Assembly (NCBI RefSeq): GCF_000007185.1
Contig: NC_003551.1
Span: forward strand, 990,001 to 1,022,000
DNA length: 32,000 bases
Origin: Methanopyrus kandleri AV19
GTDB taxonomy: Archaea; JAADCQ01; Methanopyri; Methanopyrales; Methanopyraceae
Direction: 5' to 3'
A program made the translations under genes and the position numbers. The notes beneath the pieces were generated by a model. It saw only the letters and a list, made by a program, of their open reading frames with translations, was not told the DNA's origin and searched no databases. Numbering within the stretch: the first letter of the stretch is position 1; each line of letters opens with the position of its first letter. Shown here piece by piece: positions 1,571-13,081 of the stretch.

Positions 1571-2038
1571 CTAGCCCCCGTACAAGTACCTGTCGAGGAG
1601 CGCTTTCGGGTACCCTACGTATGGTATCCTGAGAACCACCCTACCGCTGATCTCCTTGGGCCGGATCGGGCACCATGGATCGGGCAACGGGTTGTTGTCT
1701 CCCTTGGTGATGACGCCCTCCGGCGTTTTGGCTATCACCCTGTGAACCACTGGGATCGGTTTCCCAGGCAGCCGGTACACGATGACGTCTCCGACTTTGA
1801 TGTCACGGTACGGGACCCCGACGACCAGGAGCACGTCGCCGACGTTGTAGTACGGGTACATACTCTCGGAGATCACCGTGACCACCGGATCGGGCGTGCC
1901 CAGCACGAATCCGAGCCCGTACCTGAGGCCGTACCCCAGGGCCACTCCTAGGACCACGTAGAAGACCGCGGCTTTCCAGCCCCTGAGTTCTCTTACTTTC
2001 CTCCAAGCCCTCTTGACGTTCAACGCGGACCACCCCAT
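1571..2038 (-). CDS. Signal peptidase I, archaeal/ER (S26B, Sec11) type
   Basis: 155 aa. It has an N-terminal TM helix (AAVFYVVLGVALGYGL), the catalytic Ser box ISESMYP, the His box VVHRVIA and a GDNN box. Confidence 0.85.
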   Translation of the reverse strand: MGWSALNVKRAWRKVRELRGWKAAVFYVVLGVALGYGLRYGLGFVLGTPDPVVTVISESMYPYYNVGDVLLVVGVPYRDIKVGDVIVYRLPGKPIPVVHRVIAKTPEGVITKGDNNPLPDPWCPIRPKEISGRVVLRIPYVGYPKALLDRYLYGG

Positions 2039-2140
2039 AGACCACCGGAACGGGTCGAGAAATAGCCACCGGACCGTGTGAAACCCCTACGTACTGCTCC
2101 ATCGCTGAAACTTTGCCATCTCAAACCTATTTCATAACCG

Positions 2141-2200
2141 ATTTTAATCGAAGATAAGCTTAATATCTCACCCGAAGCTTACCGAAGTGCGGGGGGTGAT
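2141..2200 (+). promoter_or_regulatory. AT-rich divergent promoter region with two TATA-like boxes and a Shine-Dalgarno sequence for radA
   Basis: TTTTAAT lies at 2142-2148 and TTAATAT at 2160-2166. GGGGGGTGAT at 2191-2200 is complementary to an archaeal 16S 3' end and sits just before GTG 2204. CGAAG occurs at 2149, 2173 and 2183, and AAGCTTA at 2157 and 2175. Confidence 0.35.
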
Positions 2201-2203
2201 AAC

Positions 2204-3154
2204 GTGGTCGAGGAAGACGTCGTCGAGATAACCTCCCGCTATCTCCGCAGGGATCCCGATAAAATCGCTGAGATCTACAAAGCCATAGGTATCGAGACAC
2301 TCTCGGACCTCGCTGCGACCGACCCTGCTACAATTTCGGACGCTTTCGGTGTGAAGGAGAGCACAGCCAAGAAGATAATCGCGGACGCCCGCGAGGAAGC
2401 CAGTAAGGGTATCATGGAGGCCAAGACCCTTGCGGACCTCCTAGAGGAAGAGAAGAAGCGTGACGTAATCCCCACGGGTATACAGGGTTTCGACGAGCGG
2501 ATGGGCGGTGGACTACCGACCGGCGTTATCGTCGGTATGTACGGACCGCCAGGTGCCGGTAAGTCACAGTTCGCCACCCAGGTGGCCGCGCACGCCCTTA
2601 AGGAGGGTGAGTCGGTGCTCTACATCGACACCGAGAACGCCTTCCGACCGCAGCGTCTCCTAGAGATCGGTGGGTTCAAGAAGGACGAACTGAAAGAAGT
2701 TTCCGACAGGTTCGTGCTGCGGCGTATCATCGACGCCGCGGCGCTGAGACAGTACTTCGACGAGAAGGAGGGCGAGTTCATCAGCGAAGCCTACGAACTG
2801 ACACCGAAGGTCGTGGTCATCGATTCCATATCACAGCCGTTCCGTCCGTACAGCGCCCGCGATAAGCTACCGGAGCGATCGCGTATGATTGCCCACATCT
2901 TGAACACACTGCTCAAGTACTGCACCGCTTACAACGCCCTCGGCATGGTCACCACTCACGTCCAGGCGAACCCGGACGCTTGGGGTAAGCGCTGGCAAGA
3001 CGTGGCTCCAACGGTGCTCAAGCACATCGCCACGTACCGGTTCAGCATCGACTACAAGGGTAGGACTGAGCGGGTGATCACGCTCGAAGACGCTCCCGAC
3101 AAGCCACCGTTCGAGGTCCAAGTGGAACTCACGGACCGCGGTTTAGTGGGCTAA
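2204..3154 (+). CDS. radA: DNA repair and recombination protein RadA
   Basis: 316 aa. It has an N-terminal HhH-like domain (ETLSDLAATDPATISDAFGVKESTAKKII), a Walker A motif (GPPGAGKSQ), a Walker B-like motif (VVVIDSI) and a RecA-fold core. The length fits full RadA rather than short RadB. Confidence 0.9.
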   Translation: MVEEDVVEITSRYLRRDPDKIAEIYKAIGIETLSDLAATDPATISDAFGVKESTAKKIIADAREEASKGIMEAKTLADLLEEEKKRDVIPTGIQGFDERMGGGLPTGVIVGMYGPPGAGKSQFATQVAAHALKEGESVLYIDTENAFRPQRLLEIGGFKKDELKEVSDRFVLRRIIDAAALRQYFDEKEGEFISEAYELTPKVVVIDSISQPFRPYSARDKLPERSRMIAHILNTLLKYCTAYNALGMVTTHVQANPDAWGKRWQDVAPTVLKHIATYRFSIDYKGRTERVITLEDAPDKPPFEVQVELTDRGLVG

Positions 3155-3237
3155 CTGCGCAACTGTGCGATCCCCGGATGAGGATACAGCCGGGACCCCG
3201 AGGACCGATGCGGAGTGTGGCCGTAGCTGACGGGCCT

Positions 3238-4059
3238 TCACCTCCGCACACGGACCATGAGTCCGTCGCGCGCCACGACGACTACTGGAAACACCTCCCG
3301 AGCCTCCTCCCTCATTCTTTCCGGATCCACTTTCGTGGACAGGTGCGTCAGTACAAGGAGATCGACGCCTGCCTCGCGGGCGACCTCGGCAGCCTCTAAG
3401 TGGGTCGAGTGCAGGTATCTCACGGCTTCCTCATGATCCTCAAAGCACGCTTCATGTACCAATACCTGGCAACCGCGGACGTTCTCAGGATCGGCCGGAC
3501 GACCGTCTCCTTTCACATACACGGATATCTTACCGGGTTTCGTCAACGAGTACGGGCGCTCACCGCGTAAGAGCACTTCACGCCGCTTCGATGGAGGGAC
3601 CCTTCGTATGTACTTCGGATCCGCCTTTCCCGGTATTTTCGGTGTCTCGATCCGATAGTCGACCGTAGGAACCCCGTGTTCTGACTCGTACACCAGCACC
3701 CTGAGGTCACCGATTTCTACTTCGTCTCCCGGATTCACCTCCCGGTACTCGATCACCTCGAGGTCGGAGATGTCCAAAGCGGACTCAGAACCCGCCGTGG
3801 GACCGTAGACTTTCAACCTACGCCCGTGGAGGAGGTCCACGGTGGTCGCGAGTGGTAGGAGGCCCGCGACGTGATCGACGTGGTGGTGGGTGAGCAGCAC
3901 AGCGTCCACATCGTGGATCGTGACACCTTGCTCCATGGCCCGCCGCTGGGTACCCTCTCCGCAGTCGATTAGAAGCTTGGTTCCGGAGAACTCCACCAGC
4001 AGTCCCGGGTGGCTCCGATCCTTCGACGGGACCGCGCCACCCGTTCCCAGGAAGCGCAT
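3238..4059 (-). CDS. rnz: Ribonuclease Z (tRNA 3' endonuclease), metallo-beta-lactamase fold
   Basis: The likely start is ATG 4059 (MRFLGTGGAVPS...). Motifs present are LIDCGEGTQ, the His motif LTHHHVDH, an exosite-like insert, VHEACF and HSTHLEAAEVA...LVLTHLS. The ORF-track extension to 4152 overlaps the upstream gene and looks non-coding. Confidence 0.85.
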   Translation of the reverse strand: MRFLGTGGAVPSKDRSHPGLLVEFSGTKLLIDCGEGTQRRAMEQGVTIHDVDAVLLTHHHVDHVAGLLPLATTVDLLHGRRLKVYGPTAGSESALDISDLEVIEYREVNPGDEVEIGDLRVLVYESEHGVPTVDYRIETPKIPGKADPKYIRRVPPSKRREVLLRGERPYSLTKPGKISVYVKGDGRPADPENVRGCQVLVHEACFEDHEEAVRYLHSTHLEAAEVAREAGVDLLVLTHLSTKVDPERMREEAREVFPVVVVARDGLMVRVRR

Positions 4060-4066
4060 CACCAGC

Positions 4067-5521
4067 TCACGGTCCACGATCCGTCCCCCGGACCTCGGAA
4101 ACCGCCAGCTCGAGGCGGTCGATACCCTCCTCCAGGAACGAGAGCAGTTCATCGATCGTCTCGAAGTTCACCCTACAGGGTCTCGCCATCGCTTTCACGA
4201 TCCGCTCGACGTCTTCCCTCGAAACGCCTCGCCCCTCGTGTGCGAAGAGATGGCGTGCCTTCCGTAGCTCCGAGCACGAGAGTACCTGGATGTACCTCGA
4301 CAAGGGTCCGAACACGTCCTTTTCGACCGCACCCACTTCCAACGCCCCAGACAGGACCTTCTGGGCTACGTGGAGGAACGCGAGGACTGCTCTCCCTTCT
4401 CCTTCCTCTCCTCTCAGTTCCCTCAGTACCGCCTCGATATCCGAGTCGAGCCTATCCTCTACCGCCCCACTCAGCTCCTCGCTCGAACCAAGTAGGTCGG
4501 CGAGTAGGCTGGCGAGCTCTACGGGATCGGACGTGGTGACGCGCTCTCCAGACAACCTCTCGTACAGCAGCATAAAGCAAGCCTGGGTGTAGTTCTCGTA
4601 AAGCATGCTCAATCTCACGATGAAATCCCCGAACTCCCCGCGGATCCATTGGTACCGGGCGTTCTCCAGTACCACCCTCATGTGGTGGATTATCCTTCGT
4701 ATCGGGTCCTTCTCGGCTTCCCTCAGCTTCCTGAGTCTTCTCCGGGCTTCGTGTCTCAGTTCATCCAGATGAGCTGACCGTGTAACCTCGGCGTAGAGCC
4801 GCCGGGCCTCCTCGTAGTTGAAGTTGAGCTCCGAGTCCCGGGCCCTGAGATACACCGGCTCCATCCTGTCTTCGTAGGCGGAGAACCGTTCGGCTATTCC
4901 GGCCGCCACCTCGAACAAACCGTGCTCTATCAGCACACACTTCATGGTTTTCATCGGGAGAATCAGAGGAGACGGCTCCACCTCCACGTTCTCGTCGAGC
5001 ACCCTGAGGGGGTGAAACCTGTCCTCCCATAACGTCGCCCCGATCAAACGTATCGCCCAACCCACGTTCGGGTGCGCGCCGCCCACGTAGGCGTATAGTT
5101 CCGATCGTTTCAGATCCTCCCTGCGGTGTAGGGTCTTCAGGACGTCCTCGATCTCCCGAAACACCTCGAACCGGTCCGGGTCTTTCCTCAGGACCACGGG
5201 GTCTTCGACACGAACGCCCCACTCTTTCTCCGCGTACAAGGAGACGAGCCGAGCACAGTACTCGGTGTCCTCGGGGTGATGGCCGTACTGGTGGTCCAGA
5301 CGGCGGGTTCCCAGCGATATGAGTGTGATCTCCCGCGGATCGTACCCCTCCTCGTAGAGTACGAACCTTATAATCGCGTCCAGCGTCGGGAACGAGGCCT
5401 CACCTAAGGCACTCGGGTCCGACAGCGCCCGCTCGTACAGACGCCGGGACGCCTCGAAGAGGTTTCCACCGCCGACGATCACGTCCCGAGGTCCCGCTGG
5501 AAATAGCACTACGGCCTCCAC
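4067..5521 (-). CDS. CARF-like sensor domain plus C-terminal HEPN (Csx1/Csm6-like) protein, orphan from any cas locus
   Basis: The C-terminal motif LRKARHLFAHEGRGVS has RHLFAH encoded at 4238-4255, matching the RxxxAHxG HEPN signature. The N-terminal ~190 aa alternate beta and alpha elements (VVLFPAG, ITLISLGT, LYAYVGGAHPNVG). The likely start is GTG 5521, preceded by GGGGGA. The ORF-track start at 5683 would overlap the Lhr gene, and that extension is S/T/R/P-rich junk. Confidence 0.6.
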   Translation of the reverse strand: MEAVVLFPAGPRDVIVGGGNLFEASRRLYERALSDPSALGEASFPTLDAIIRFVLYEEGYDPREITLISLGTRRLDHQYGHHPEDTEYCARLVSLYAEKEWGVRVEDPVVLRKDPDRFEVFREIEDVLKTLHRREDLKRSELYAYVGGAHPNVGWAIRLIGATLWEDRFHPLRVLDENVEVEPSPLILPMKTMKCVLIEHGLFEVAAGIAERFSAYEDRMEPVYLRARDSELNFNYEEARRLYAEVTRSAHLDELRHEARRRLRKLREAEKDPIRRIIHHMRVVLENARYQWIRGEFGDFIVRLSMLYENYTQACFMLLYERLSGERVTTSDPVELASLLADLLGSSEELSGAVEDRLDSDIEAVLRELRGEEGEGRAVLAFLHVAQKVLSGALEVGAVEKDVFGPLSRYIQVLSCSELRKARHLFAHEGRGVSREDVERIVKAMARPCRVNFETIDELLSFLEEGIDRLELAVSEVRGTDRGP

Positions 5522-5607
5522 GTAATGTCCCCCGAAGGCAACATGAGTTGTCCGTCGTTCGGCGGTATTGAAGCGTTGCCGTACCGACTCGGCCGGGGTC
5601 GACGGCC

Positions 5608-8340
5608 GTGACCGAAGGGTTTGAGGCGCTACCGGACGACGTACAGAGAGTAGTGTACTCGAGGTTTGATGAACCCACTCCACCCCAACGCGTAGCGATA
5701 CCCGAGATTATGGATGGGAAGAACGTCTTGGTGATAGCCCCCACCAGCTCCGGTAAGACCGAGACCGCGGTATTACCCGTGTTCTCCATGGTACGTGAGC
5801 TCGACGAGCCTGGGATCAAGGCGCTTTACATCACCCCGTTGCGGGCCCTTAACAGGGACATACTGCGAAGGATCCGCTGGTGGGGGGAGAAGCTGGGCCT
5901 CGAGGTTGCGGTGCGTCACGGCGACACCCCGCAGAGCGAGCGGAGGCGTCAGGCGGAGGACCCGCCGGACGTACTGGTCACGACTCCCGAGACCCTCCAG
6001 GCCATACTACCGGGTAAGCGCATGCGTGAGCACCTCTCCCATGTACGTCACGTGATCGTGGATGAAGTTAACGAGCTCGCCCTGGACAAGCGCGGTGTAC
6101 AACTGACGCTCGGACTGGAACGACTCGCCGAGGTGGCTGGTGACTTCCAACGTATCGGCCTCTCCGCCGCCGTGGGCTCGCCCGACCGCGTGGGTAAGTT
6201 CTTGGTCGGCGATCGCGACGTCGAGGTGCTGGAGATCGAGGCCGAGCGTTACCTGGACGTTTCCGTGGCTCATCCGACCGGGCCGCACGAGGTTAAGGAA
6301 CGGCTGGAATTGATCCACGAGCTGGCGAAGGAGCGGGACTCTGTTCTCGTGTTCACCAATACTAGACAGATGGCCGAACTACTCGCGACCCGCCTGAAAA
6401 CGGAGTACGACGACATTGAGGTGGAGATACATCACAGTTCAATATCGAGAGAGAAGCGCATGGAGGTCGAAAAGAGGTTCAAAAAAGGTGAGATCGATGT
6501 CCTCGTGTGCACCAGCTCACTGGAGCTCGGTATAGACATAGGCCACGTGGACTTGGTGGTCCAGTACGGCTCGCCACGTCAAGTAACCCGCCTCGTGCAG
6601 CGAGTGGGACGCGCGGGCCGTCGACGTAAGCGGGCCGAGGGTCTCGTGATAACGTCAAATCCAGACGATCTCGCGGAGGCGGCGGTGATATGTCGTCGGG
6701 CGCTGAAGGGATCCCTGGAACCCACTGAGATCCCGGAAGGTTGCCTGGACGTCCTCGCCCACCAGCTCGTGGGGTTGTGTCTGGACGGGCACCAGGTCAC
6801 CGTGGACTACGCGCTGGAGGTGTTCAGACGGGCTTATCCGTACCGCCATCTCGACGCCGAGACGCTCCGAGAGGTGGCCGAGTTCCTGGACGATATCGAG
6901 GTGCTCCGGGTGCGCGGTGACCGTGTGTACCGGACGAAGGACGCCTGGAAGTACTATTACTCGAACTTGAGCATGATCCCCGACGAGCGACACTACCGGG
7001 TAGTTACGGAGAGCGGCGGACACGTCAGCGTCCTCGACGAGCCGTTCGTCCTCGAGTACCTAAGGCCGGGTATCAAGTTCATCTGCGCCGGTAGGCCGTG
7101 GATCGTGCAGGACGTGGATCACGACCGTTACGAGGTGCTAGTGACGCCGGCCGAGGCCGTGGAAGGCGCCATACCCTCGTGGGTCGGCGAGGAGATCCCG
7201 GTCCCGTACGAGGTGGCGCGCGAGGTGGGGGAAGGGATCGGGCGGGCCGAAGCGGCGCTGGAGGATGGGTTCACCGAGGCCGTCGAGGTCGCGGCCGAAA
7301 CCTTCGGTCTAGGACGCCGCGAGGCCAAGGTACTAGCCGACCTGATCCGTAGGCAGCGGGAGCACTCAGCGGTGCCGCTTCCGGAGAGGCCCGTCATCGA
7401 GGACCTGGGTGGGACCCTGGTGATCCACGTGTACGGTGGTACGAACCCCAACCGCACCCTGGAGAAAGTCCTCGGGACCTTGATCTCGGGACGTCTGGGG
7501 ACGACGGTCAGGACGTACTCGACCCCGTACAAGATCGTGATCTCGGCGGAGAAGCGGGCGGGACTCGACGCGGACCTCCTCATGGAGTGTTTGGAGACGC
7601 TGCCTTCCGACGAACGCGGGTTCCACGCCCTCACGCTCAGAATCGTCGAGAAATCCGAGGTCTTCAAGCGCCGATTGGTGCACGTCCTGAAGCGCTTCGG
7701 TGCGATAGAGCCGGACGCCGACTACAGGGACGTCTCACCGCGACGCCTCCTGAAGGCGTTCAAGGGGACTCCCCCGTACTACGAGACAGTCTCGGAGGTC
7801 GAGCGGGATCTAGACACCTCCGTGGCGTTCCGACTGGTGAAGGAGCTGGAGGAGAAGGCGGAGATCGTCCGGGTGCGCGATCCTTCCCCGTTCGCCGAAC
7901 ACGTGTTGGAGGGACTCGGAGAGGTAGGGCGCGTGACTTCGGGACTCCTGGCCGCGCAGGTCGAGACGCTCAAGCGGGACCTGGAACGACGCAAGCTGTG
8001 GCTCGGCTGCCCGAACTGCGGCTGGCGCGGTCGACGCTCCGTCAAGACCGTTAAGGAGGAGGGTCTCGAATGTCCCGACTGCGGCGCTACGTACCTGGTC
8101 GCTGCCAAGACCGAGGAGGGTCTGGAAAAGCTGCTGAAGGACTCCGAGCGCGCTCGGCGGGTGGCCGATCTGCTCGAGTCATACGGTGCCAAGGCCCTGG
8201 AGGCCCTCGCGGTACCGGGTGTCGGGCCCGAGGCCGCGGCTAAGGTGCTCCGATCGACCGGCGGACGTGAGCCGCACTTCTACCGTGAGCTACTGCAGGA
8301 GCGCCTCCGTTACCTCCGCACCCGTCGGTTCTGGGACTAG
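5608..8340 (+). CDS. lhr: Lhr-type superfamily-2 ATP-dependent helicase with a C-terminal zinc ribbon and HhH
   Basis: 910 aa. Motifs are PTPPQRVAIPEI (Q), APTSSGKTE (I), DEVNE (II), TSSLELGIDIG (V) and QRVGRAGRR (VI). The C-terminal extension carries CPNCG...CPDCG and ALAVPGVGPEAAAKVL. Confidence 0.85.
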   Translation: MTEGFEALPDDVQRVVYSRFDEPTPPQRVAIPEIMDGKNVLVIAPTSSGKTETAVLPVFSMVRELDEPGIKALYITPLRALNRDILRRIRWWGEKLGLEVAVRHGDTPQSERRRQAEDPPDVLVTTPETLQAILPGKRMREHLSHVRHVIVDEVNELALDKRGVQLTLGLERLAEVAGDFQRIGLSAAVGSPDRVGKFLVGDRDVEVLEIEAERYLDVSVAHPTGPHEVKERLELIHELAKERDSVLVFTNTRQMAELLATRLKTEYDDIEVEIHHSSISREKRMEVEKRFKKGEIDVLVCTSSLELGIDIGHVDLVVQYGSPRQVTRLVQRVGRAGRRRKRAEGLVITSNPDDLAEAAVICRRALKGSLEPTEIPEGCLDVLAHQLVGLCLDGHQVTVDYALEVFRRAYPYRHLDAETLREVAEFLDDIEVLRVRGDRVYRTKDAWKYYYSNLSMIPDERHYRVVTESGGHVSVLDEPFVLEYLRPGIKFICAGRPWIVQDVDHDRYEVLVTPAEAVEGAIPSWVGEEIPVPYEVAREVGEGIGRAEAALEDGFTEAVEVAAETFGLGRREAKVLADLIRRQREHSAVPLPERPVIEDLGGTLVIHVYGGTNPNRTLEKVLGTLISGRLGTTVRTYSTPYKIVISAEKRAGLDADLLMECLETLPSDERGFHALTLRIVEKSEVFKRRLVHVLKRFGAIEPDADYRDVSPRRLLKAFKGTPPYYETVSEVERDLDTSVAFRLVKELEEKAEIVRVRDPSPFAEHVLEGLGEVGRVTSGLLAAQVETLKRDLERRKLWLGCPNCGWRGRRSVKTVKEEGLECPDCGATYLVAAKTEEGLEKLLKDSERARRVADLLESYGAKALEALAVPGVGPEAAAKVLRSTGGREPHFYRELLQERLRYLRTRRFWD

Positions 8341-10558: not shown

Positions 10559-13081
10559 GTGACTACCCGGGAGGTTCGGGGGCGAGGGTTGCTCCGTACA
10601 GTGTGGGTAGATTACGCCAGGAAAGGCGAACCCGATGTCATCTTAGTCGGTCGGCGGGAGGACGGGAACCCAGCTGCCCTCGTCGTTAAGGGGTTTCGTC
10701 CCTACTTCTACGCGGAGGTGGAGGACGGGTTCGATCCGTCCGAGGTGGAGCGTCTGAGCGGTGTGGTGGAGGTCGAAGAAGTCCTGTTGGAGCACCCCTA
10801 CGGCGGCGACCGGGTGGAGCTCCTACGGATCGTCGCCACGTACCCCAAGGTCGTCCCCAAACTGCGCGAGCAGGTCAAGAAGCTGGACGGCGTGAAGGAG
10901 GTCTACGAGGCGGACATCCCCTTCGTGCGCCGTGCCGCCGTCGACCTCAACTTGCCGCCGGCGTCCGAGGTCGACGTCTCCGACCTGGACACGGGGTCCT
11001 GGTCCGGACTTCCCGCGTACTTCGCGGACGTCGAGGACGCCCGTGAGTTGGACCACCGCCCCTACCCGATCGAGGACCTCGTCGTCGCCAGCTTCGACCT
11101 CGAGGTGCTGGCGGAACCCGGAACGACGATCAAGGGAGCCTCGGGCCCCATCATCGCCATCAGCTTCGCGTACAGTACGCCTGACGGGGAGCGCCGTAAC
11201 TACGTGATTACCTGGAAAGGAGAGGACGAGTCGTTCGAAGTGGACGGGGTGGAAACCGAGGTCATCGTGTGTAGGTCGGAAGCCGCCGCGCTGCGGAGGT
11301 TCTTCGACGAGTTCCGCCGCGTTGATCCCGACGTGGTGTTCACATACAACGGGGACGAGTTCGACCTGCCGTACCTGCAACACCGGGCCGGGAAGCTGGG
11401 TATCGACGTCTCGCCCCTGGCGCGGCCGGCGGGCAAGCGTGGGATCATACTGAAGCACGGGGGCGGCCGTTATGCCTCCGATATTTTCGGACGGGCCCAC
11501 GTCGACCTGTACCACACGGCGAGGAAGAACCTCAAGCTGGAACGCTTCACGCTCGAGGAGGCCGTCAAGGACGTGCTCGGTGTAGAGAAGGAGGAGATGG
11601 AGCTAGCCGACATCAACGAGGCCTGGAAGCGCGGTAATCTGGACGAACTGATGAGGTACTCGGCTGAGGATGCCCACTACACCTTAGAGTTGGGGCTCGA
11701 GCTGGCGCAGGTCGAGTTGGAGCTCTCCTACCTGACACGGCTGCCGCTGCCGGATGCGACCCGCTTCAGCTTCGGACAGCTCGCGGAGTGGAGGGCCATC
11801 TACAAGGCGCGCCAGGAGGACATCCTGGTACCGAACAAACCGACTCGAGATGAGTACAAGCGGCGGCGTCGCAAGGCGTACAAGGGCGCGATAGTGTTCG
11901 AGCCCGAGATAGGGCTCCACGAGAACGTGGTCTGCGTGGACTTCGCCAGCCTGTACCCCAACGTGATGGTCGCGCACAATATCTCGCCCGACACGTTCGA
12001 CTGCGACTGTTGTCCGCGTGTGACCGTCGAGGAGGTGGACGACCCCACGGACGCGACCGTGGCACCGGACGTGGGCCACAAGTTCTGCAAGCGGCGTAAG
12101 GGGTTCTTCCCCCGGCTCGTAGAGGGACTCATCGAACGCCGGCGTGAGCTCAAGCGCCGCCTCCGGAAGCTCGATACCGAGTCGCATCCTCACGAGGCTA
12201 AGATCCTCGACGTACGACAGCAGGCGTACAAGGTCCTGGCCAACAGCTACTACGGTTACATGGGCTGGGCTAACGCGCGCTGGTTCTGCCGCGAGTGTGC
12301 CGAGAGTGTTACCGCTTGGGGTCGCTACTACATCAGCGAGGTTCGAAGGATCGCGGAGGAGAAGTACGGGTTGAAGGTCGTGTACGGGGACACCGACTCG
12401 CTGTTCGTGAAGCTGCCCGACGCGGACTTGGAGGAAACCATCGAGCGGGTGAAGGAGTTCCTGAAAGAGGTCAACGGCCGCCTCCCCGTGGAACTAGAGC
12501 TGGAGGACGCCTACAAGAGGATCCTGTTCGTGACCAAGAAGAAGTACGCCGGGTACACCGAGGACGGGAAGATCGTTACGAAAGGTCTGGAGGTGGTCCG
12601 ACGGGATTGGGCGCCTATCGCCAGGGAGACGCAGCGTCGAGTCTTGAAGCGGATCCTAGCCGACAACGACCCGGAGGCGGCGCTGAAGGAGATCCATGAG
12701 GTCCTCGAGAGGCTGAAGTCGGGCGACGTCGACATCGACGAGCTCGCGGTCACGTCCCAGCTCACGAAGAAGCCCTCGGAGTACGTTCAGAAGGGTCCCC
12801 ACGTCAGGGCCGCGCTACGGCTCGCTCGACACCTCGGAGTGGAGCCCGAACCGGGTACCATCGTGAGGTACGTCATCGTCCGCGGTCCCGGTAGCGTCAG
12901 CGACAAGGCGTACCCGGTGGAACTGGTGCGGGAAGAGGGGAAAGAGCCCGACGTCGATTACTACATCGAGCACCAGATACTACCGGCCGTGGAGCGGATC
13001 ATGCGGGCGATAGGTTATTCCCGCGGGCAGATCGTCGGTGAGACGGCCTCACAGAAGACGCTGGATCAGTTCTTCGGCTGA
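10559..13081 (+). CDS. polB: Family B DNA polymerase (PolB)
   Basis: 840 aa. Exonuclease motifs are FDLEV, YNGDEFDLPYL and YSAEDAHYT. Polymerase motifs are DFASLYPNVMVAHNISPDT, KVLANSYYGYMG and YGDTDS. No intein is present. The start is ambiguous: GTG 10559, or TTG 10589 after a TTTTTA box at 10549-10554. Confidence 0.95.
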   Translation: MTTREVRGRGLLRTVWVDYARKGEPDVILVGRREDGNPAALVVKGFRPYFYAEVEDGFDPSEVERLSGVVEVEEVLLEHPYGGDRVELLRIVATYPKVVPKLREQVKKLDGVKEVYEADIPFVRRAAVDLNLPPASEVDVSDLDTGSWSGLPAYFADVEDARELDHRPYPIEDLVVASFDLEVLAEPGTTIKGASGPIIAISFAYSTPDGERRNYVITWKGEDESFEVDGVETEVIVCRSEAAALRRFFDEFRRVDPDVVFTYNGDEFDLPYLQHRAGKLGIDVSPLARPAGKRGIILKHGGGRYASDIFGRAHVDLYHTARKNLKLERFTLEEAVKDVLGVEKEEMELADINEAWKRGNLDELMRYSAEDAHYTLELGLELAQVELELSYLTRLPLPDATRFSFGQLAEWRAIYKARQEDILVPNKPTRDEYKRRRRKAYKGAIVFEPEIGLHENVVCVDFASLYPNVMVAHNISPDTFDCDCCPRVTVEEVDDPTDATVAPDVGHKFCKRRKGFFPRLVEGLIERRRELKRRLRKLDTESHPHEAKILDVRQQAYKVLANSYYGYMGWANARWFCRECAESVTAWGRYYISEVRRIAEEKYGLKVVYGDTDSLFVKLPDADLEETIERVKEFLKEVNGRLPVELELEDAYKRILFVTKKKYAGYTEDGKIVTKGLEVVRRDWAPIARETQRRVLKRILADNDPEAALKEIHEVLERLKSGDVDIDELAVTSQLTKKPSEYVQKGPHVRAALRLARHLGVEPEPGTIVRYVIVRGPGSVSDKAYPVELVREEGKEPDVDYYIEHQILPAVERIMRAIGYSRGQIVGETASQKTLDQFFG

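Follow-up and report, generated by a model that had tools for sequence, protein, structure and literature searches.

The window analysed here, a stretch of 32,000 nucleotides corresponding to bases 990,001-1,022,000 of the single-contig genome of Methanopyrus kandleri AV19 (1,694,969 bp), was found to contain a minus-strand gene for a CARF-6H-HEPN protein of the Csx1/Csm6 family, situated between the divergent helicase gene lhr and the RNase Z gene rnz (Table 1; positions are counted from the first letter of the window). A 'hypothetical protein MK1034' of M. kandleri AV19 (NP_614317.1, 484 aa) appears in supplementary file 1 of Makarova et al. 2014 (PMC4012209), in the family pfam09670_CARF_6H_Hepn, with the effector class 'toxin', the CRISPR type 'unknown' and the cas neighbourhood 'no'. 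The gene of the window is very probably MK1034, because the length of 484 aa is the same, only two such proteins are present in the genome, and, by the order of the gi numbers, MK1034 precedes the cas-linked CARF genes by about 260-280 genes, in keeping with the distance of 300 kb found on the chromosome. The protein is therefore already catalogued as a CARF-6H-HEPN protein without cas neighbours, whereas its adjacency to rnz and its pattern of gain and loss within Methanopyrus are not described in that catalogue. A literature query with 'MK1034' returned only unrelated accession numbers. The 2025 CRISPR classification describes CARF homologues as abundant outside CRISPR-cas loci, and orphan CARF-HEPN genes at such places were noted again in PMC12669027.

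Table 1. Features of the MK1034 locus, in window positions
Feature	Position	Strand	Basis or remark
CARF-6H-HEPN (Csx1/Csm6-family) gene, 484 aa	4067..5521	-	PADLOC Csx1 profile, AlphaFold2 model, PMC4012209 supplement
CARF domain, residues 1-184	4970..5521	-	Rossmann-like; loop motifs I and II degenerate, D85-T86 invariant
Helical middle region ('6H'-type linker), residues 185-330	4532..4969	-	all-helical in model
HEPN domain, residues 331-484	4070..4531	-	Csm6 6H+HEPN structure match; weak Pfam HEPN_Swt1 match
R-x4-H catalytic motif RHLFAH (R423...H428)	4238..4255	-	both residues invariant in alignment
7-nt spacer gctggtg, stop TGA (4069-4067) to rnz ATG (4059)	4060..4066	-	direct sequence reading
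rnz, RNase Z, 273 aa	3238..4059	-	TIGR02651, 1y44 matches
86-bp divergent intergenic region, CARF-HEPN gene/lhr	5522..5607	.	presumed to hold both promoters
lhr, Lhr-type helicase, 910 aa, divergent neighbour	5608..8340	+	Pfam DEAD, Helicase_C, WH_Lhr, DEAD_assoc

The reading frame of MK1034 was open from 5683 down to 4067, and GTG 5521 was taken as the start because it agrees with where the orthologues begin, with beta-strand 1 of the structural model and with the 484-aa length of the catalogued protein. A start at GTG 5683 was rejected, as the longer frame would overlap lhr. The initial annotation, made from the letters alone, had described a 484-aa protein that stops 7 nt before the ATG of rnz with GGTG in the spacer, is divergent from an Lhr helicase and carries RHLFAH at nt 4238-4255; each of these readings was borne out, the motif occupying residues 423-428 and the helicase being recognised by four Pfam domains. 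The same annotation ended the protein at ...VERIV, and the translation was found to continue for 41 more residues.

The best profile match of the protein was a full-length match to the PADLOC Csx1 profile PDLC01509, of the CARF1-CARF_HEPN kind (E = 6.2e-11, residues 1-446), followed by two further CARF+HEPN profiles, PDLC01031 (7.2e-9) and PDLC01817 (1.5e-6). The orthologues were also found to match PADLOC Csx1/CARF1-CARF_HEPN profiles. Scans against Pfam and NCBIfam gave nothing above threshold, a weak Pfam HEPN_Swt1 match being present at residues 416-449. When 1.84 billion representatives were searched exhaustively with phmmer, a single Methanopyrus orthologue cluster was returned, together with five weak matches (E 8e-9 to 8e-4), which were the sole relatives outside Methanopyrus in that set. 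These five distant relatives (P0007-P0011) were found to match Csx1/CARF1-CARF_HEPN profiles at E 1e-44 to 1e-73 and to contain the Pfam Csm6 HEPN domain. Two more Methanopyrus sequences were 89-91% identical to MK1034. A search of genome contigs for related loci with P0007 as the query found none, and searches of PDB sequences with two profiles gave no meaningful match.

An AlphaFold2 model built on the joint alignment had a mean predicted local distance difference test score of 90.9, and its top Foldseek matches were all Csm6, Csx1 or CARF proteins. At full length, VIA-align matched the model with EiCsm6 (6tug; Z 16.0, 347 aa aligned, residues 1-472), StCsm6' (Z 15.2) and TtCsm6 (Z 14.1), and the Csm6 matches reached residues 472-475. 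Residues 1-184 alone were matched with SSO1393 (Z 15.0, root-mean-square deviation 2.8 A, 164 aa) and the Sis0811 ring nuclease (Z 14.5), followed by the CARF domains of Can2, Card1, Cami1 and Cdn1 (Z 12-14), with dozens of CARF structures at Z 10-14. Residues 185-472 were matched with the 6H+HEPN part of two Csm6 proteins, 5yjc from S. epidermidis and 4rgp from S. mutans (Z 12.5, 219-224 aa); this Z value lies near the background that the tool states for helical folds, so that the weight for the HEPN fold was placed on the full-length Csm6 matches. In the model, a Rossmann-like fold of the CARF superfamily at the N-terminus was followed by a helical linker and by the all-alpha helical bundle of the HEPN superfamily at the C-terminus, and the proposed architecture is thereby confirmed.

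The residues R423 and H428 of the RHLFAH motif were found to be invariant in all ten aligned sequences (five of Methanopyrus and five distant Csx1 proteins), and D85, T86 and P115 of the CARF part were likewise invariant, the distant Csx1 proteins included. The proposal of a Csx1/Csm6-like protein with a CARF sensor, a helical linker and a HEPN nuclease thus agrees with the profiles, with the predicted fold and with the catalytic residues, and MK1034 is on this evidence a highly divergent, Methanopyrus-specific member of that family.

Compared with the solved enzymes TtCsm6 (TTHB152, 5FSH/8JH1) and EiCsm6 (6TUG), MK1034 has the same three-part architecture and fold, with Z 14-16 over about 350 residues, the R-x(4-6)-H motif in which the arginine is followed by a polar residue, and the conserved threonine of the adenine loop of TtCsm6; its genome contains cyclase-competent Cas10. 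The sequence identity to the Csm6 structures was only 11-15%, with no PDB chain detectable by sequence. MK1034 further differs from Csm6 in that motif I lacks the Thr/Ser pair, motif II lacks T-x-G-x-K or GGT, the catalytic motif is R-x4-H instead of R-N-x5-H, and no cas gene is closer to it than 300 kb. With the orphan CARF-HEPN genes of the 2014 catalogue no difference of substance was found, MK1034 itself being among them.

No tandem array was found in the 32-kb window, and the ten other large open reading frames of the window that were scanned gave no cas match; within this scope the claim that neither a cas gene nor a repeat array accompanies the gene was upheld. The description as an orphan holds for the window and not for the genome, in which Csm1, Cmr2, Cas1, CRISPR arrays and two CARF proteins were found, the genes some 300-340 kb away. 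In a k-mer scan of the genome, the nearest array was located 89 kb past the end of the window, about 117 kb from MK1034, and 38 CRISPR repeats were counted from 1.111 to 1.363 Mb, grouped into about six arrays. The nearest cas or CARF gene was found about 298 kb from MK1034, and its association with a type III locus is thus one of the genome as a whole and not of neighbourhood. Both Cas10 proteins scored above their curated cut-offs and contained an intact GGDD cyclase motif: Csm1 at 1,331,277-1,333,592, with GGDD at position 837 of the open frame, and Cmr2 at 1,301,499-1,303,061, with GGDD at position 607. Cas1 was located at 1,326,951 and a Cas_APE2256 CARF protein at 1,293,124. The two GGDD-bearing Cas10 proteins, together with the CRISPR signalling genes of this genome, imply that a source of cyclic oligoadenylate (cOA) and a pathway for signalling are available in trans.

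A Csx1 paralogue was found to adjoin the csm genes (genome about 1,336,549-1,338,027; L017:1348-2826, plus strand). Its CARF motifs are canonical (DT, and TTGTPAQ as motif II). It differs from MK1034 in the adjacency to csm and in the canonical motif II, and only its helical region could be aligned to MK1034 by BLASTP, at 29% identity. The paralogue contained RDDYAH, with the unusual R-x4-H spacing that is shared with MK1034, which may point to an ancient duplication in this lineage. The GTG start listed for the paralogue is probably about 50 codons too far upstream.

Six Methanopyrus genomes were compared, AV19 (G000) and five others (G001-G005). In AV19, which contains Csm1, Cmr2 and Cas1, the gene between lhr and rnz is intact. 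Intact genes were also present in G002 (99% complete, 60 contigs; 53% identical) and G003 (89% complete; 50% identical), in neither of which Cas10 or Cas1 was found, and G005 (87% complete), with Csm1 and Cmr2, contained a gene of 51% identity that is cut by the contig end. The order lhr, CARF-HEPN gene and rnz is thus conserved in four species; in the same genomes Lhr was about 91% and RNase Z about 67% identical. In G004 (94% complete), with Csm1, the gene was absent and the starts of lhr and rnz were about 50 bp apart. In G001, the closest complete genome (a single contig, 99% completeness; Lhr 97% and RNase Z 91% identical), three remnants were left (L015:5237-6100; 1.42 Mb), corresponding to window positions 3900-4233, 4769-4889 and 5462-5789 and separated by deletions of roughly 535 and 570 bp, and the 86-bp promoter region upstream of the remnants was kept at 86% identity. 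No Cas10, Cas1 or repeat of the AV19 type was found in G001; here the CARF-HEPN gene has decayed and rnz is untouched. The AV19 repeat was not found in any of the five other genomes, not even in the two with Cas10, a result that is meaningful only for the single-contig G001. In G004 and G005, cas10 was matched a few kb at most from the contig start, and CRISPR loci may therefore be poorly assembled in these drafts.

The ratio of nonsynonymous to synonymous substitution rates (dN/dS, omega) was 0.13-0.35 in each of the three domains. Between AV19 and G002 it was 0.17 for rnz and 0.06 for lhr. With an omega of 0.29 against 0.06, the CARF-HEPN protein evolves about five times faster than Lhr. Between species the helical middle was 63% identical and the flanking domains 43-54%, the CARF domain being the least conserved (43-44%). 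The purifying dN/dS values, the decay in G001 and the absence in G004 together indicate that the gene is functional but dispensable, and it is therefore regarded as a fast-evolving accessory gene.

The explanation favoured here, with moderate confidence, is that MK1034 is a divergent Csx1/Csm6 ribonuclease fed by a distant Csm/Cmr signal. By analogy with the solved Csm6/Csx1 enzymes, the protein is predicted to form a homodimer, and cOA supplied by Cas10 would be bound where the two CARF domains of the dimer meet and would switch on the composite HEPN site of R423 and H428, leading to non-specific cleavage of RNA. The signal would come from the Csm and Cmr systems about 300-340 kb away, with the protein acting in trans as an ancillary effector encoded by an accessory gene between lhr and rnz, probably co-transcribed with rnz. 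Ligand binding would be expected, since the CARF domain is under purifying selection and D85 and T86 are invariant; ring-nuclease activity is unlikely, judging from a motif I that has no Thr/Ser pair.

Several observations weigh against this explanation. G002 and G003 contain an intact gene under purifying selection and neither yielded a Cas10 or a Cas1, although this absence is weak evidence because CRISPR loci may be poorly assembled in draft genomes. G004 contains Csm1 without the CARF-HEPN gene, and the co-occurrence with Cas10 is thus imperfect across the genus. The loops that would grip the ligand appear degenerate, which makes ligand binding uncertain, and the motif background likewise does not favour a ring nuclease.

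These loops were compared by sequence alignment and not by superposition of the pocket. The ligand loops of TtCsm6 contain G58-T59-S60 in motif I and T133/G135/K137 in motif II (PMC10897365). In the AV19 lineage motif I was AGPRD and motif II was VGGAHPNVG, whereas G002, G003 and G005 contained AKPED or VKPRD as motif I and VLDTDTYLE as motif II. The distant relatives contained G-N/Q-S/R-D as motif I, followed by (T)GGT/TGT-P-A-Q as motif II (for example GGTPAQN), a form of motif II that is shared with the cas-linked paralogue. The segment LYAYVGGAHPNVG corresponds to residues 142-154 of MK1034, and the glycine-rich turn that had been read as a CARF hallmark was not conserved in the orthologues. 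T81 of TtCsm6 binds adenine (PMC10897365), and T86 of MK1034 may be its counterpart.

An unlikely alternative starts from the same loops and holds that the sensor is degenerate, the ribonuclease no longer reading cOA and being regulated in another way or by another small ligand, or drifting towards loss. Motifs I and II that differ both from those of the relatives and between Methanopyrus lineages would be in keeping with it, as would the pseudogene in one species and the position of CARF as the least conserved domain. A drifting sensor would fit less well with the purifying selection on the CARF domain (omega 0.12-0.38), with its confident folding as CARF in the model and with D85, T86 and P115, which are kept even in comparison with the distant Csx1 proteins.

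The downstream gene rnz matched TIGR02651 over residues 2-270 of 273 (E = 3.6e-53; 180.6 bits against a curated cut-off of 292.95) and, over its full length, RNase Z of B. subtilis (1y44, E = 2.6e-27) and of E. coli (2cbn). It was the sole RNase Z-like gene with a strong score in the genome and was retained throughout the six Methanopyrus genomes that were searched. Its start was set at 4059 rather than at the upstream in-frame ATG 4152 on the basis of the RNase Z profile alignment and the orthologues. The spacer to MK1034 is 7 nt in AV19 and, computed from the locus coordinates, about 17 nt in G002 and G003. GGTG abuts the ATG, which by our reading of the sequence is too close for a typical Shine-Dalgarno spacing. 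As only 7 nt separate the genes, co-transcription of MK1034 with rnz is plausible, and no A/T-rich promoter-like element was seen in the last 240 nt before rnz. The RNA data consist of contigs from size-fractionated small-RNA libraries, with patchy and low cover of both genes in which gaps are uninformative. One contig was found to span 3998-4152 at a depth of 2.8, in a single run out of four, all from the same study; it bridges the junction, as co-transcription would predict, and could also derive from DNA carry-over.

From this arrangement the initial annotation had proposed an undescribed wiring, a signal-gated ribonuclease tied to RNase Z, and perhaps to Lhr, for RNA quality control or stress dormancy independent of CRISPR. 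The tight spacing, the gene order conserved in four species, the lack of a promoter-like element together with the bridging contig, and the intact gene in two assemblies without a detected Cas10 would all suit such a link, which was examined within Methanopyrus. The pairing was broken in G001 and G004, where rnz is retained alone beside a decayed gene or without any, so that neither gene depends on the other; the bridging contig comes from a single run at low depth, and evolution about five times faster than that of Lhr is typical of accessory or defence genes. The proposal is accordingly considered improbable. The place of the CARF-HEPN gene before rnz looks like a positional accident and not a new regulatory circuit, and rnz would be driven from the promoter of the 86-bp region with or without the intervening gene.

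A related reading, to which we give similarly little credence, is that the MK1034 clade has left type III signalling, its canonical cOA-binding loops rewritten and its gene settled at a housekeeping locus, where it would share an mRNA with RNase Z, be under purifying selection in G002 and G003 and answer to another signal or to none in RNA turnover or dormancy. The small chance of such a CRISPR-independent role derives from the rewritten CARF loops and from the two drafts in which no Cas10 was found.

That the downstream metallo-beta-lactamase gene encodes a cyclic-nucleotide phosphodiesterase, as an Apyc1-like or ring-nuclease-like partner of the CARF protein, is highly improbable and was rejected, since the Pfam Anti-Pycsar_Apyc1 match (45.4 bits, with the cut-off at 50) and a match to a cyclic-nucleotide phosphodiesterase family of NCBIfam are far exceeded by the full-length RNase Z matches, and the gene is the sole RNase Z candidate and is kept with or without the CARF gene in every Methanopyrus genome.

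The annotation of MK1034 should read Csx1/Csm6-family CARF-6H-HEPN ribonuclease in place of 'hypothetical', and the significance beyond this is small. The locus illustrates cleanly how an ancillary gene of type III systems, at a distance from them, can decay in a relative without detected CRISPR-Cas genes, and the degenerate CARF motifs are a modestly useful test case for drift of the CARF pocket against cOA sensing, in a subfamily without a solved structure detectable by sequence.

In the 86-bp region, RNA-library contigs were found to start at 5531-5537 and to run into lhr (window 5531-5884), and a contig over the 5' end of the CARF-HEPN gene stopped at 5544; transcription of the two divergent units may thus overlap slightly here, by a few bases, in so far as contigs, which cannot show true ends, can be read in this way. 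The spacing of about 50 bp between the lhr and rnz starts in G004, the most divergent Methanopyrus species (L016:5190-5290), would place both promoters largely in coding sequence, or else the mRNAs are leaderless.

Elsewhere in the window, an 840-aa family B DNA polymerase was found at 10559-13081 (plus strand), which matched the PADLOC 'HEase' profile at E = 7e-157. Its reading as a homing-endonuclease defence gene was rejected, as this profile evidently includes polymerase sequence. Downstream of rnz, a probable C/D-box small RNA is followed by radA. This RNA of about 60 nt (3176-3235, plus strand), flanked by the stop codons of radA and rnz, was very abundant, with contig depths of about 2,000-6,000 in four small-RNA runs. 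It contained a C-like GGATGAGG near the 5' end, followed by CTGA near the 3' end, and matched Rfam sR18 at E = 9e-4, below the gathering threshold; it is probably one of the many C/D-box small RNAs of M. kandleri.

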